From a virus: a stretch of 64,000 nucleotides of DNA. The stretch covers positions 64,001-128,000 of IMG/VR virus record IMGVR_UViG_3300033512_000218, one strand, 5' to 3'. Under the pieces are notes generated by a model. That model did no database searches and was not told where the DNA came from. It saw only the letters and a program-made list of their open reading frames with translations. Position 1 is the stretch's first letter; the number at the start of each line of letters is the position of its first letter. Position numbers and translations under genes: made by a program. This document shows, one piece after another, positions 3,200-40,240 of the stretch.

Positions 3200-4318
3200 A
3201 TGAATAAACTTAAAGAATTAATAAAATCAGAAGAAAATGAAAAATATCATTTATCTTTAAATTATATTGATTATATAAATAATTTCAATTTAGATGGCGG
3301 ACAAATATCTTCTGAATTATATAATAATTTATTATCAAAAGTAAAAAATATTGAGACATCATTTGATGTTTATAAATATTATCAAAATCAAAATTTATTT
3401 GATTTTTCCGAAAAATATGGAACATTATTAACAGGTATATTTAAAAGTGATAAATTAAATCCAAGAATTAATGTTGATAATGTATTACAACAAATATTAA
3501 TTAATAGTGATTCCACTACAATTAAAAAATACTATAAATATTATAATAAATTAGGTAAAGTTGAAAAACAAATTATTGATGATTTTAAAGAACATGAAAT
3601 TCTTAAAAAAGAAATAACCGAATTTAAACAAAAGTTTAAATTAATGAAAAATAATATAGTCTCAAATCCTACTAAATCAGATATAAAAAATAAACAACAT
3701 GAATATATCAAAGGTAAAATTGATACAAAATTAAAAAATATAATAGAAAAAATAGCAGAAGAATACAGAAAAAGTATTGAATTAAATTATGCTAAATATT
3801 ATATTCAAATAATTGAAAACTACAACGATTCACAAAAAACAGAACCAAATCCATATATTTTATATATGAAAAATCCAGATTATAGAGAAAATATTTTAAA
3901 GTTTTTAGATGAAAAACAAGATAATACTAATAAATTAAAATATGTTTATAACGGAACAAAAACATACGAATTAAAAAGTAATTATAAAGAAATAATAAAA
4001 CAAGAATCTAAAAAACAATCTGATAATATTATATCTGATTATATAAATAAAATGTTTTATAAATTAGGTGGATTATTAATTGATATAAATAAAGAAGTAA
4101 AAAATATTGTTAAATCAGGAAATGAAAGTGAAGGAACAATAATATTCCAATTTACTGATAATAGTCAATTTACTATAAAAAACAGTATAGTTAAATCATA
4201 TTCAAAATTAAGTACTCCTTTTTATCGCTATCCTTTAACATTTCATAATATAATTAATAGCAAAGGCGAATATATAAAAAATCCAAGTGAATTAACATTA
4301 AAAAAATATTTTAACTAA
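3200..4318 (+). CDS. hypothetical phage protein
   Basis: 372-aa ORF behind promoter module. Confidence 0.8.
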   Translation: MNKLKELIKSEENEKYHLSLNYIDYINNFNLDGGQISSELYNNLLSKVKNIETSFDVYKYYQNQNLFDFSEKYGTLLTGIFKSDKLNPRINVDNVLQQILINSDSTTIKKYYKYYNKLGKVEKQIIDDFKEHEILKKEITEFKQKFKLMKNNIVSNPTKSDIKNKQHEYIKGKIDTKLKNIIEKIAEEYRKSIELNYAKYYIQIIENYNDSQKTEPNPYILYMKNPDYRENILKFLDEKQDNTNKLKYVYNGTKTYELKSNYKEIIKQESKKQSDNIISDYINKMFYKLGGLLIDINKEVKNIVKSGNESEGTIIFQFTDNSQFTIKNSIVKSYSKLSTPFYRYPLTFHNIINSKGEYIKNPSELTLKKYFN

Positions 4319-8267: not shown

Positions 8268-9041
8268 ATGATAATAGATTTAAGATTTGGTGATACAATA
8301 GAACAAATGAAATTAATACCTAATAAAAGTATTGATTTTATTTGTTGTGATTTACCGTATGGTACAACTAAAAATCATTGGGATATTGTTATTCCATTTG
8401 ATAAATTATGGGAACAATATGAACGAATTATTAAAAATAATGGTGCTATTGCTTTATTTGGTCAAGGATTGTTTTTTATAGATTTAATAAACTCAAATAG
8501 AAAATTATTCAGATATGATTTAGTTTGGGATAAACAATTAACAAGTGGATTTTTAAATGCAAATCGTATGCCATTAAGAGTACATGAAAATATTGCTATT
8601 TTTTATAAGCAACCACCTATATATAATTCACAATATACAGAAGGTAAGCCACTACATTCAAAAGGAAAATCATATCTAAATAAAGAACATAAAAATGAAA
8701 ATTATGGTAAATTTAAAATGATTGAAGATATTAATGTTGGTAATACACAAAAACATTCTAAAAGTATTATATCTTTTCAAAAACCACATCCAAGTAAATC
8801 CTTACATCCCACACAAAAACCAGTTGAATTGATTGGATGGTTAATAATGTCATATTCAAATGAAAATGATACTGTATTGGATAATACATTTGGAAGTTGT
8901 ACAACAGGAATTGCATGTATAAATACAAATAGAAATTTTATTGGAATAGAAAATAATATTCATTATTTTAATATTTCATTAAAAAGAATAAATGAAAAAC
9001 AAAAAGAAAAAGAATTTATATTATTAAATTCAATGATTTAA
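8268..9041 (+). CDS. DNA methyltransferase, N4/N6 (beta-class) family
   Basis: DLPYG, HPTQKP, VLDNTFGSCTTG, FIGIE. Confidence 0.9.
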   Translation: MIIDLRFGDTIEQMKLIPNKSIDFICCDLPYGTTKNHWDIVIPFDKLWEQYERIIKNNGAIALFGQGLFFIDLINSNRKLFRYDLVWDKQLTSGFLNANRMPLRVHENIAIFYKQPPIYNSQYTEGKPLHSKGKSYLNKEHKNENYGKFKMIEDINVGNTQKHSKSIISFQKPHPSKSLHPTQKPVELIGWLIMSYSNENDTVLDNTFGSCTTGIACINTNRNFIGIENNIHYFNISLKRINEKQKEKEFILLNSMI

Positions 9042-9676: not shown

Positions 9677-9733
9677 TTTAACATTTATTAACACAAATTA
9701 ATTTGTATTTATGAAATAAATGTTTTATCTTTG
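9677..9733 (+). promoter_or_regulatory. box+promoter module copy 3 (upstream of cassette array)
   Basis: Box 9677, TTTG 9702, TATCTTTG 9726-9733. Confidence 0.85.
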
Positions 9734-9871
9734 TGATATTATTAACAATTAAAAAAATAAACAAAATAGAAAATCCACAAATTATTGAATCAAATGGTAA
9801 ATTTAATACAATTAAAAAACTTCATAAATTTGAAACATAAAATTTAATTAACAGATAAAACTTAATAAAAG

Positions 9872-10162
9872 ATGAAAACTTTGAGTACAAAAGAAACTGC
9901 CCAATTGGGTATAGGTGGTGTTATGCACCGTGAATTTCAAGAAAAGTTATTTAATGATATAAAAGCTATGCAATACAGAATACAAGGGCTTGCTGCTTAT
10001 GTACAGAATGACTTTGAAAGAATGTTGGAAGATGGTACAACAACAAAAGAAACTATTAATACTGAAATTACAGAAATGGATGAACAGTATAATAAGTTTA
10101 TTAACGACCTTAATATATTGAGAAAGCAAACCCGTGATTTAATGACTTTTCATGTTGCATAA
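9872..10162 (+). CDS. cassette 1 coiled-coil protein; N-terminus encoded across an attC-like site
   Basis: 96 aa; GTTATGC at 9920 lies inside the ORF; the stop codon lies inside GCATAAC. Confidence 0.7.
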   Translation: MKTLSTKETAQLGIGGVMHREFQEKLFNDIKAMQYRIQGLAAYVQNDFERMLEDGTTTKETINTEITEMDEQYNKFINDLNILRKQTRDLMTFHVA

Positions 10163-10298
10163 CGAAAAACGGTATGTGCCGTGATGTTTTTCGTATCTAA
10201 ACGGCTCAAAAGTATCAATAACCACAAATGTAAATAAGTAAGTAGACTGTATCAAAATAGCACTAAAAACAGCATGGACACTATACCGTATGTTATGC
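10157..10298. repeat. attC-like recombination site
   Basis: GCATAAC...GTTATGC ends; arms 10169-10191 and 10265-10289 pair with two single-base bulges. Confidence 0.7.
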
Positions 10299-10335
10299 GT
10301 ATTAATCATATTATCAATAATTTAATTTTATAAAA

Positions 10336-10833
10336 ATGGAAAATATCACAAATTTTGAAACATTAAACAGTTTTTTAGAAAAATTAGAAACTGAAAAAGA
10401 GGAATTAAATAGAAAAATAGAAATTTTGGAAGAAGAAAAAGATCATCAAAAATGGCAATGGATGAAACACATTGCAGTGCCAAAAGATGATTTTCTTAAA
10501 CAATTGCCTTGTCCACGAATAGAAATGAAAATATTTGGTGATAGATATGAATGTGGATGGATTACAGGAATTGTTTTTCCTGATTATGCAGACGAGGAAA
10601 AAAACAGATTTATTCCTTTTTCAATGACTACTACAAGTGGAAAAGATTTAATCGAAAATAAAAATCCGCGTTTGCCCTGGCGTGATGAGTTTCATATTTA
10701 TTCTTATTCACGAATATTTAATTTACGAATGTTTTTAACACGAGAAAATGATAATTTAATTACAGAATTATTTGTAAAACCTGAATTTATAAATCCTTTA
10801 TCAGATTTTGAAAGTAAAAATGTTATCGTTTAA
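10336..10833 (+). CDS. cassette 2 hypothetical protein
   Basis: 165 aa, fills the cassette; stop 6 bp before TACGCATAAC. Confidence 0.75.
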   Translation: MENITNFETLNSFLEKLETEKEELNRKIEILEEEKDHQKWQWMKHIAVPKDDFLKQLPCPRIEMKIFGDRYECGWITGIVFPDYADEEKNRFIPFSMTTTSGKDLIENKNPRLPWRDEFHIYSYSRIFNLRMFLTRENDNLITELFVKPEFINPLSDFESKNVIV

Positions 10834-10972
10834 ATTTATTACGCATAACTATTATATATAAACACACATTTAATTTATTGATTATGAATACAAAAGGTAA
10901 ATCAACTCTTGAAATTTTTGAAAATAATTTAAGAGTTAAAAAAATTATAATAAAACTAAAAAATACATAAAT

Positions 10973-12265
10973 ATGAATAACGAAATAAAAGAATTTATAG
11001 TAAAAATGAACTCAAGTAATTCAAATAATGAAAAACTTAGCATTTTAACATCCTATGAAAATAATACATTAATAAAAGATATATTATTCTATACATACAA
11101 TCCATTTATTAATTATCATCTAACAAGTGAAAATTTAATAAAGAATAATAATATTGTGGTTAATACCGATTTAGATTTATTTTCTATATTAAATATTCTA
11201 TCCAAACGACAAAAAACAGGACATGATGCAATTGGTATTGTAAATGGACTTATTAAAAATAATATTGATTATAAAGATATTATTTATAAAATAATTGATA
11301 AAAATTTAGAAATAAGAATAGATATAAAAACAATCAATAAAGTATTTTCTAATCTAATCCCAACGTATGATGTTGCATTAGCAAATAAATTGGATGATAA
11401 GTTAAAAAATAGTATTAATTGGAAAACCGAACATTGGTTAGCAAGTAGAAAATTAGATGGTATTAGATGTGAAATGATAGTAGATGAAAATTATAATGTT
11501 ACTTCATTTAGTAGAGAAGGAAAAGAAATAGAAACATTAACCACATTAAAAAAATATATTTACGATATTTGTATTTCAAATAAAATCAGTAATGTTGTAT
11601 TTGATGGAGAAATATGTATTATAAATGAAAAAGGAGAAGATGATTTTCAAGGTATTATGAAACAAATAAGAAAAAAGAATCATGATATTATAAATGCAAA
11701 ATATTATATATTCGATTTTCTTAATAAAATAGATTTTGAAAATCAAACAAGTAAAGAAACATTTAGTGAACGTTTATTAAAATTAAATAATCTTAATTAT
11801 AATAATGATAAAATAATTGTACTACCTCAATATGATTTTGATATGTATATTGATTATGAAAAATGGAATAAATTAGTAAGTGATAATAATTGGGAAGGAT
11901 TTATGCTTCGTAAAAATACAATATACAAAGGTAAACGAAGTAATGATATTCTTAAAGTTAAAATTTTTTTTGATAATGAATATATTGTTAAAAAAATAGA
12001 AACAGGTAATTTTAGAGTAATAAATAAAGAAACTAAATTAGAAGAAGTTATTGAAACTCTAACAAATGTTATTATAGAACATAAAGGATATGAAGTATCT
12101 GTTGGTAGTGGATTTTCATTGGAACAACGTAAATTATACTATAATAATCCTACTTTACTATTAAATAAAAATATTACTGTTTCATACTTTGAAGAAACAT
12201 TAGACCAAAATAATAAAATATCATTGAGATTTCCAACTTTCAAAGGTATTAGAGAATTAATTTAA
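10973..12265 (+). CDS. ATP-dependent DNA ligase
   Basis: KLDGIR, FDGE, WEGFMLR, KRSNDILKVK, VGSGF, SLRFPTF. Confidence 0.95.
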   Translation: MNNEIKEFIVKMNSSNSNNEKLSILTSYENNTLIKDILFYTYNPFINYHLTSENLIKNNNIVVNTDLDLFSILNILSKRQKTGHDAIGIVNGLIKNNIDYKDIIYKIIDKNLEIRIDIKTINKVFSNLIPTYDVALANKLDDKLKNSINWKTEHWLASRKLDGIRCEMIVDENYNVTSFSREGKEIETLTTLKKYIYDICISNKISNVVFDGEICIINEKGEDDFQGIMKQIRKKNHDIINAKYYIFDFLNKIDFENQTSKETFSERLLKLNNLNYNNDKIIVLPQYDFDMYIDYEKWNKLVSDNNWEGFMLRKNTIYKGKRSNDILKVKIFFDNEYIVKKIETGNFRVINKETKLEEVIETLTNVIIEHKGYEVSVGSGFSLEQRKLYYNNPTLLLNKNITVSYFEETLDQNNKISLRFPTFKGIRELI

Positions 12266-20692: not shown

Positions 20693-20764
20693 TGCCCATG
20701 TGATGTAATGGTAGCACGAATGATTGTGGTTCATTTAGTCCGAGTTCGAATCTCGTCATGGGTA
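20693..20764 (+). tRNA. tRNA-His(GTG)
   Basis: Acceptor GCCCATG/CATGGGT, D loop TAATGGTA, anticodon stem AATGA/TCATT with loop TTGTGGT, T loop TTCGAAT; followed by CAA rather than CCA. Confidence 0.9.
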
Positions 20765-20769
20765 CAAAA

Positions 20770-39443: not shown

Positions 39444-39500
39444 CAAAGATAAACTAAATATTTTCAAAATCAAAATTAATTTGTGTTAATAAATGTTAAA
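39444..39500 (-). promoter_or_regulatory. box+promoter module copy 10, back-to-back with late motif 39503
   Basis: Box 39485-39500; CAAAGATA 39444. Confidence 0.85.
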
Positions 39501-39640: not shown

Positions 39641-40240
39641 ATGAAATCAAGGGAAGTTAAAAAAATTTTAAATATTACACAACAAACATTACACAATTAT
39701 ATTATTGAAGGTAAAATTAAATATATTAAAATTAATAAATATCATTACAATTATAATGATTAAGATGTTTATAAACTAATTGGTATTAAAAAAGAAAAAA
39801 AGAATAAATTAAATGTATCTTATTCCAGAATTAGTAATAAAAGAAATGATGATTTAAAAGAACAATCTCAAAGAATATATAATTATTGTATATCAAAAGG
39901 AATTAATTTAAATTATCAATTCGAAGATATTAAAAGTGGAATGAATTTTGATAGACAAGATTTTAATAAACTAATCGAACTTATTATTAAAGGTGAAATT
40001 GAATTACTTATCATTGAAAATAAAGATAGATTAGTTAGATTTGGATTTGAACTATTAGAAAATATTTTTAAATATTTCGGTACTAAAATAATTGTTATTA
40101 ATGATTCATTATCAAATAAAACATATGAACAAGAATTAACTGATGATTTAATATATATCATACATTATTTTAGTATGAAATCTTATTCAAATAGAAGAAA
40201 ATTAAATAAAATTAAAAAAGATTTACAAGAAACAAATTGA
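39641..40240 (+). pseudogene. tnpA: IS607 serine recombinase TnpA with in-frame TAA
   Basis: MerR-like HTH, YSRIS, EDIKSG, KDRLVRFGFE, ELTDDL; TAA at 39761. Confidence 0.85.

Follow-up and report, generated by a model that had tools for sequence, protein, structure and literature searches.

Integrons are the textbook bacterial gene-capture system, and in classical integrons the first bases of a cassette are complementary to the cassette's own inverse core. Another form of modular exchange is represented by the promoter-stem-loop (PeSL) cassettes of T4-type phages, in which stem-loops and promoter-like sequences surround small accessory genes that are proposed to be shuffled as modules. To our knowledge, PeSLs have no AAC/GTT cores, no complementarity between the ends of a cassette, no terminal site and no dedicated recombinase. 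Here, we analyze a cassette block in a 64,000-nt stretch of viral DNA (the window) that corresponds to bases 64001-128000 of the record IMGVR_UViG_3300033512_000218, a 139.6-kb genome with a GC content of 22% and an estimated completeness of 60%. We consider it probable that the block at ~9827-10970 of the window is a two-cassette array of an integron-like gene-capture platform of Bacteroidota phages. The array is a small, partly decayed member of that system. The platform is integron-like by every anatomical test that was run, but it is not a classical integron because its recombinase lacks the IntI-specific insertion and scores below the curated cut-offs. The preliminary description of this DNA proposed an attC-bounded array of the integron type, an assignment that stands for the cores, the bulged hairpin, the complementarity of each cassette's own ends and the terminal site but not for membership of the integron family proper, given the recombinase. 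Two further arrays of the same genome, a long array and a solo cassette, lie ~8-13 kb upstream of the window in the contig region L133.

A precedent is known from virulent phages. A passage in Qi et al. (2023, PMC9892861) describes integrase-less clusters of attC sites (CALINs) in virulent phages, including the Polaribacter phage P12002L, where they occur with methyltransferases. According to that passage, the P12002L sites were found with attC models, and one of them was recombined by IntI1 in an assay that favored the bottom strand; a phage-encoded recombinase or a terminal site is not reported in the passage, and the text of the paper does not contain the term 'Xer'. The present system and the P12002L CALIN are alike in that the carrier is a marine flavobacterial phage, the sites lie between DNA methyltransferase genes and no intact integrase is found nearby. 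The long array of the present genome carries four DNA methyltransferases (MT-A70, N4/N6, MT-A70 and C5) as its payload. A CALIN is defined by at least two tandem sites without an intact integrase, and the window contains one full site, one half site and a terminal core, whereas the long array yields seven matches to the site model described below; the adjoining recombinase is a stub, and both arrays fit this definition. Given the P12002L precedent, attC-like sites in a flavobacterial phage are not new. A dedicated Xer-like recombinase, a terminal site, a mirrored topology and a polymorphism such as that of the Freya isolates described below are without description in the literature searched, which did not cover all journals.

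The complete attC-like hairpin site occupies 10157-10298 on the plus strand (142 nt), and its anatomy is directly observed. It consists of an AAC core, a 5-nt spacer, an arm of ~23 nt, a loop of ~70 nt, a second arm with two bulges, a 2-nt spacer and a GTT core. As first reported, the site opens with GCATAAC (10157-10163) and closes with GTTATGC (10292-10298), and its arms pair with two single unpaired bases on one arm, which is the 3' arm; the arms also contain one G.T pair and one A.G mismatch. The site folds as RNA with a free energy of -35.9 kcal/mol (z -2.6) and as single-stranded DNA with -19.7 kcal/mol (z -4.4), compared with -15.2 kcal/mol for the minus strand. In the single-stranded DNA folds, the plus (coding) strand is more stable than the minus strand in all seven sites of the genome. 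One 7-mer is concentrated here, since four of its ten occurrences in the whole 139.6-kb genome fall within 930 bp of the block. The preliminary description placed the start of the block at 9894, too far to the right: the unit begins at ~9827, at a half site (9827-9926, +) that retains the loop, the right arm and the GTT core and lacks the left arm. The similarity of this half site to contigs L002 and L003 (98%) begins just past their left arm, and metagenome contigs contain a full left arm before the position that corresponds to 9827.

The hairpin belongs to a family that is conserved in structure over sequence. Five sites of the long array and the site that precedes the solo cassette have a common layout of AAC, 4-5 nt, an arm of 18-20 nt, a loop, the opposite arm, 2 nt and GTT. 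These six sites were aligned with the window site and five sites from other contigs, and RNAalifold analysis of the resulting 12-site alignment identified 15 arm pairs, 13 of which show compensatory changes. In the alignment, 88% of the cells are paired, compared with 64% in shuffles and 35-46% in controls with slid partners, and 56 cells are changed on both sides, compared with 19 in shuffles; none of 500 shuffles attains the observed values. The core pairs are kept in all 12 sites. Three of the four are invariant, and the fourth is replaced by a G.T pair in the one site that has G for A in the AAC core. Among the arm pairs, one is G.T in nine of 11 sites. The loops vary from ~14 to ~77 nt, while the spacers stay at 4-5 nt and 2 nt.

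A covariance model built on this family recognizes sites within the arrays only. The model matches the window site at 10155-10300 (52.7 bits, E 3e-7) and the half site weakly at 9844-9928 (E 0.13). The preliminary description had suggested such a scan of the whole phage and would have been weakened by a lack of similar bulged hairpins elsewhere; over the 139.6 kb, the model returns ten matches, all of them on the plus strand and inside the three arrays, and similar hairpins are present. The ten include two sites outside the training set in addition to the half site, and seven lie in the long array. When applied to the methyltransferase region of P12002L, the model gives three weak matches on the gene strand (E 0.002, 0.01 and 0.07). 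The P12002L sites are likely to belong to the same family, as judged from these matches, whose weakness leaves the identity of the two families short of proof. Several matches are also found in the records G004 (the 58.8-kb record of L096, rated 100% complete) and G005 (the record of L125, 92%), and those of L096 lie on both strands.

Two further features of the sites were observed. The loops of long-class sites share a conserved motif of ~20 nt across unrelated phages (window ~10225-10250; sites 3, 4, 6 and 7 of L133; L046, L084 and L096), which hints at an additional role, for instance in protein binding or as a promoter. In the same arrays, the long class is accompanied by a short class, whose sites have covarying arms of 10-12 nt around an identical 11-nt loop (L150 3517-3570 and 3817-3870; L002 5195-5250).

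Each cassette consists of a gene bounded on its 5' side by a GTT core and on its 3' side by an AAC core, and the 14-19 nt on the inner side of one core are complementary to those on the inner side of the other. In cassette 1, the 5' flank (9920-9934, +) is complementary to the 3' flank (10149-10163, +) over 15 nt (87%), and the 3' flank ends in the AAC core, which contains the stop codon of the cassette gene. In cassette 2, the 5' flank (10292-10305, +) is complementary over 14 nt (93%) to the 3' flank (10836-10849, +), which ends in the last AAC core of the array. The complementary ends noted previously (8 bp and 10 bp) are therefore genuine and longer than described. The same property extends to the solo cassette (15 nt, 93%) and, as read by eye, to the five cassettes of genes D to H in the long array (14-16 nt). 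It recurs in homologues of the cassette 1 gene and in unrelated genes of other contigs, and the extension of the complementarity varies by gene with pairing retained. In contrast to the two ends of one cassette, the 9 nt that lie outside the cores of any one site in the long array show no complementarity to one another. Viral contigs were also scanned for an exact 14-mer, with 113 matches that are mostly due to chance; only seven of them have the matching AAC core downstream.

The cassette 1 gene, ORF1 (9872-10162, +), encodes 96 residues as called, or 79 residues from the ATG at 9923, which lies within the GTT core and may be the true start. The half site overlaps the annotated codons 1-18 (9872-9926), which are a translation of the loop and right arm of the recombination site, and some database entries run the frame further, through the left arm. 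ORF1 represents a conserved family of unknown function without a match to Pfam or PHROG families, and its 29 homologues (43-96% identity) lie beside differing neighbors. A search of viral contigs with the ORF1 alignment found one locus. The cassette 2 gene, ORF2 (10336-10833, +; 165 residues), is also of unknown function and has two homologues only, each 54% identical; the one with genomic context, in L009, has ordinary gene neighbors and no cores around it. ORF2 matches no Pfam or PHROG family, comparison with a protein atlas provided no fold lead, and a search of viral contigs with ORF2 gave no matches. A mini-ORF of 12 codons (10295-10333, +) has its ATG in the GTT core and terminates 2 nt short of ORF2, and comparable mini-ORFs follow the same core in contigs L084 and L125.

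Two other explanations of the cassette ends were considered and rejected. A protein-level origin of the common 'VMHR' start and 'GA-stop' end is ruled out because the core stretch that encodes 'VMHR' in ORF1 homologues is translated in a different frame in L096, and in L046, L084 and L125 it precedes the start codon; the constraint thus acts on DNA rather than on protein. An inversion system of the shufflon type does not fit either, given that inverted cassette 1 stops after 17 codons and that all units have one orientation.

The array ends at a site that is not a hairpin and that leads directly into a recombinase gene. This terminal, attI-like site (10850-10883, +) lies between the last AAC and the recombinase start codon. 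The AAC and the same AT-rich, non-hairpin sequence end all three arrays of the genome and are kept in L135, L150 and G001. In the window and in the long array, the terminal site is followed by an ATG and a short open frame, which in the window comprises 28 codons (10884-10970, +). In L135, the terminal sequence opens a tyrosine recombinase of 234 residues that is truncated before the catalytic tyrosine, and the first ~60 nt of the window frame are identical to the start of this gene. In G001, it opens an internally deleted copy with seven model matches within the 3.5 kb upstream. In L150, it opens an intact recombinase of 268 residues that is homologous to the window frame and is preceded by four sites and a Dam cassette with complementary flanks. 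Since the same terminal sequence opens the recombinase in all three contexts, 10884-10970 is the stub of that gene, an N-terminal remnant. The linkage of sites to the recombinase gene is thus directly observed. The earlier statement that no integrase lies in the window holds for an intact one but overlooked this tyrosine recombinase remnant as well as an unrelated resolvase-domain (serine recombinase) ORF of 158 residues at 39815-40201 (+; 53.6 bits), which adjoins no array.

What kind of recombinase accompanies the arrays? Its intact relatives form a very large family of 265-269 residues with a SAM-like N-domain and a catalytic domain. No arm-binding domain was found, as in the simple Xer/IntI-like type, and such an architecture is unusual for lysogeny integrases (PMC8138268). 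The best matches of the family are XerA-type models and structures. The intact phage-type relatives reach 183 bits against the archaeal XerA model (cut-off 220) and 125-146 bits against the XerC/XerD models (cut-off ~330), and those of 268-269 residues score 136-143 bits against an integron-integrase cut-off of 265 and fail the TIGR02249 and NF011946 cut-offs. The match to the integron models is split into two stretches at the point where the IntI insertion would lie. A bacterial relative of 298 residues scores 215 bits with XerA and 169-176 bits with XerC/D and also aligns without the IntI insertion. The IntI-specific insertion is essential for integron function (Smyshlyaev et al., PMC8138268), and its absence here means that the defining feature of an integron integrase is lacking. 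The nearest relatives in isolated phages are the 'integrases' of the Polaribacter phages Freya, Danklef and Leef and of the Cellulophaga phage Ingeline; the Danklef recombinase is a stub of 43 residues. Among genomes, the relatives are nearly all from Bacteroidota, which supports the host assignment made in the preliminary description.

Cassettes and their boundaries differ between related sequences in the manner expected of exchanged units. L002 and L003 match the present genome only over 9827-10164 (98% identity), and the match ends at the AAC core; likewise, the similarity to contigs from other runs stops at 10163/10164. Contigs from three other studies break at 9827, 9923, 10163/10164, 10201 and 10297, with different sequence after each breakpoint, and these positions are the arm and core boundaries of the sites. 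It had been reasoned at the outset that constant synteny of both genes without GTT/YAAC boundaries would argue against cassettes, and ORF1 homologues instead occur in varied contexts with breaks at the cores. Searches against isolated phages with the block (blastn) and with ORF1 (tblastn) gave no match.

Polymorphism at the core is directly observed in related cultured phages, the Polaribacter phage isolates Freya_8 (L137), Freya_6 (L139), Freya_1 (L140) and Freya_5 (L232). Freya_8 contains a row of small co-directional genes upstream of an intact recombinase gene, and the last of these genes has complementary GTT...AAC ends. To the right of the terminal AAC, the isolates are 99.5-100% identical, whereas the left side differs, and a block that is 100% conserved in all isolates lies 0 to ~4.9 kb from the terminal AAC, depending on the isolate. 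Freya_6 corresponds to Freya_5 with an additional 459 bp placed exactly after the AAC, and the last part of this insert is a unit with complementary ends of 17 nt. Furthermore, a 180-nt piece of a Freya cassette recurs with 92% identity in the Cellulophaga phage phi13:2. The Freya recombinase has been read as a sign of temperate life in a text that mentions neither cassettes nor hairpins (Bartlau et al., PMC8776804).

The platform shares with classical integrons the tandem arrangement of promoterless-looking cassettes and the attC anatomy, in which AAC (R'') and GTT (R') cores stand at the base of an imperfect palindrome with an unpaired spacer, paired inner boxes and a variable loop of 75-146 nt. 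As in integrons, a cassette begins with a core that matches the inverse core at which it ends, so that the start is complementary to the AAC side of its own cassette and not to the neighboring site. A separate site that forms no hairpin adjoins the recombinase gene, new cassettes appear at this site in Freya, and one strand folds better than the other. The platform differs from classical integrons in its phage-type recombinase, which fails the cut-offs noted above, and in its carrier, a phage. In a classical integron, attI next to the integrase gene is where cassettes enter, the integrase gene is divergent and a Pc promoter reads into the cassettes. Here, the recombinase gene follows the array with the same orientation, and the promoter-like module stands at the far end; in this arrangement, cassettes enter at the promoter-distal end. 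Moreover, the coding strand folds better here, the end complementarity comprises 14-19 nt instead of 7, and no extrahelical bases are conserved, whereas those of integron attC sites occupy fixed positions and mark the bottom strand as the one recombined. Likeness to Xer systems, namely XerCD, which acts on the folded single-stranded attachment hairpin of the CTX phage, and archaeal XerA, is found in the simple two-domain tyrosine recombinase, the hairpin substrate and the short central core. Unlike those systems, the platform has no dif-like site or context and no role in chromosome-dimer resolution, it comprises many-cassette arrays, and its recombinases score below the curated equivalog cut-offs of the Xer models.

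We propose that the recombinase would recognize the folded site on single-stranded DNA, where the coding strand folds better, and that strand exchange would take place at the AAC/GTT core. New cassettes would be inserted at the terminal site, beside the recombinase's own gene, and the complementary ends of a circularized cassette would extend the stem of the hairpin site. Transcription of the array would start from a phage promoter at the opposite end. The use of single-stranded DNA, the precise point of cleavage and the activity are inferred. Because only stubs are left of the recombinase copies next to the arrays, the array in the window may be a fossil or may rely on a recombinase supplied in trans by a co-infecting phage, by the host or by the 40% of the genome that is missing from the record. 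For the same reason, ongoing capture by this phage is unproven.

Several observations weigh against an integron-like platform. No tyrosine recombinase domain (PF00589) is present in the 139.6 kb of the genome, in which the array-adjacent copies are stubs, and none is present in G004 or G005 despite their sites. The recombinase family lacks the IntI insertion and falls below every curated cut-off. Extrahelical bases do not occupy conserved positions and are absent from most sites; two bulges occur in the 3' arm of the window site and one in a single other site, and the remaining sites have the conserved G.T pair instead. The left end of the array is a half site, which is not expected from a clean site-specific event. 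In the Freya, Ingeline and Danklef loci, the hairpin model finds no matches, although cores and flank complementarity are present, and Freya-type arrays are often devoid of a hairpin. Recombination itself was not observed, and no joints were found in sequencing runs; that search covered assembled contigs only, with at most 0.25 of the words, which makes the absence of joints uninformative on excision in this phage.

The main remaining rival is that the hairpins are RNA-level or regulatory elements, such as terminators or RNase III or stabilizer stems, that the genes are shuffled by homologous recombination as proposed for T4-type promoter-stem-loop cassettes and that the recombinase is a coincidental lysogeny gene. 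The greater stability of the coding strand and the G.T bias fit coding-strand folding of DNA and equally an RNA structure: mismatches are mostly G.T on the transcribed strand, which is the better folding strand in all seven sites, and this bias also counts against the platform. The sites lie between small co-directional genes behind a repeated promoter-like module, their loop sequences are partly conserved, and the ATG in the GTT core opens a gene or a coupled mini-ORF, all of which would suit an element that acts in RNA. The assignment of the Freya recombinase to temperate life (Bartlau et al., PMC8776804) points in the same direction, while a recombinase without an arm-binding domain would be an unusual lysogeny integrase (PMC8138268). 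However, RNA elements leave unexplained why the end complementarity is specific to each cassette and maintained by compensatory changes, why, in five lineages or more, a conserved non-hairpin terminal site runs directly into the start of the recombinase gene and why 459 bp are inserted at the terminal AAC of Freya_6 relative to Freya_5. We therefore regard this explanation as unlikely, though it deserves to be kept in mind.

The inverted repeats of 14-19 nt that flank the genes, together with the strand-biased folding known from single-strand transposons, would also be compatible with miniature transposable elements with terminal inverted repeats or with IS200/IS605- or REP-type single-strand transposons that are moved by a transposase. 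Such an origin is very improbable, given that no Y1 transposase domain (PF01797), as required for an IS200/IS605 or REP/RAYT system, is present in the genome and that no target-site duplications were seen. The repeats vary by cassette outside the cores and hence provide no common transposase-binding end, and the units are confined to tandem arrays, each of which runs up to the same conserved site next to a tyrosine recombinase gene. Could a short palindromic word and inverted repeats of AT-rich sequence have clustered by chance, without any function, in a GC-richer insert of foreign origin? Taken alone, the 7-mer test across all words and windows falls short of being overwhelming, and weak inverted repeats are abundant in AT-rich DNA (95 pairs in 1.4 kb). 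Nevertheless, chance is contradicted by the covariation relative to slid and shuffled controls, by the specificity of the model and by the conservation in many contigs and cultured phages, and we give it almost no weight.

This system touches on two unsettled questions, namely how integrons arose from Xer-like recombinases and how far they extend beyond bacteria with IntI. In a phage lineage, the full logic is in place, with sites that are structured, ends that are specific to each cassette, an insertion site at the terminus and a linked recombinase; the enzyme has no IntI insertion, however, and the topology is mirrored. The methyltransferase payload of the present genome, together with the Dam, GmrSD-like and Acb1-like genes of relatives, points to a rapid exchange of counter-defense genes among phages. 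On a broader scale, we give roughly equal weight for and against the view that a distinct family of integron-like platforms is common to Bacteroidota and their phages, driven by a small Xer-like recombinase without the IntI insertion and, in phages, with cassettes that are sense to the folding strand and enter promoter-distally beside the recombinase start. Such a family would be active today in virulent or weakly temperate marine flavobacterial phages and would exchange accessory genes, anti-restriction methyltransferases among them, between phages whose hosts belong to different genera. The reading of Freya-type recombinases as markers of lysogeny may need revision. Freya isolates that differ only at this locus exist in culture, which makes the mechanism directly testable.

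Genes upstream of intact recombinases in other contigs (L150 1058-3271; L148 4928-5866) encode GmrSD-like, faint Acb1/2H-phosphoesterase-like, Dam and zeta-toxin-like domains, which points to a defense or counter-defense payload. On Bacteroidota chromosomes, the loci L198 (5908-10523) and L191 contain homologous recombinases (in Tamlana, Seonamhaeicola and others) followed by five to six co-directional genes, and the intergenic spacers of 110-150 nt match the hairpin model on the strand opposite to the genes. Bacteria may thus hold a near-classical version of the platform, in which the bottom strand folds.

The block is GC-richer than its surroundings, as noted previously (0.29-0.34 compared with 0.13-0.25 in the surroundings and 0.22 in the whole genome). 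Its GC content matches that of other carrier contigs (0.30-0.33) and was counted as support for the cassette platform. The idea of a single import from a donor lineage with 32% GC was modified after the other two arrays of the genome were seen. Upstream of the block lies a DNA methylase gene (8268-9041), and downstream are a DNA ligase gene (10973-12265) and a clamp loader gene. Rfam and ARAGORN searches of the window detected nothing besides a tRNA-His gene (20694-20765, +), their sole match; the hairpin site thus belongs to no known RNA family, with the limit that Rfam contains no attC model. The phage promoter-like module that had been noted before the block is indeed repeated: the copy at 9677-9740 (+, ~60 nt) upstream of the array is one of six in the window, compared with 0.04 expected. 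The module also precedes the long array and stands after the ends of the long array and the solo cassette (L133). Its window copies lie at 4234, 9037, 9677, 14110 and 14732 on the plus strand and at 39477 on the minus strand, the last one near the resolvase-domain ORF and on the strand opposite to it.

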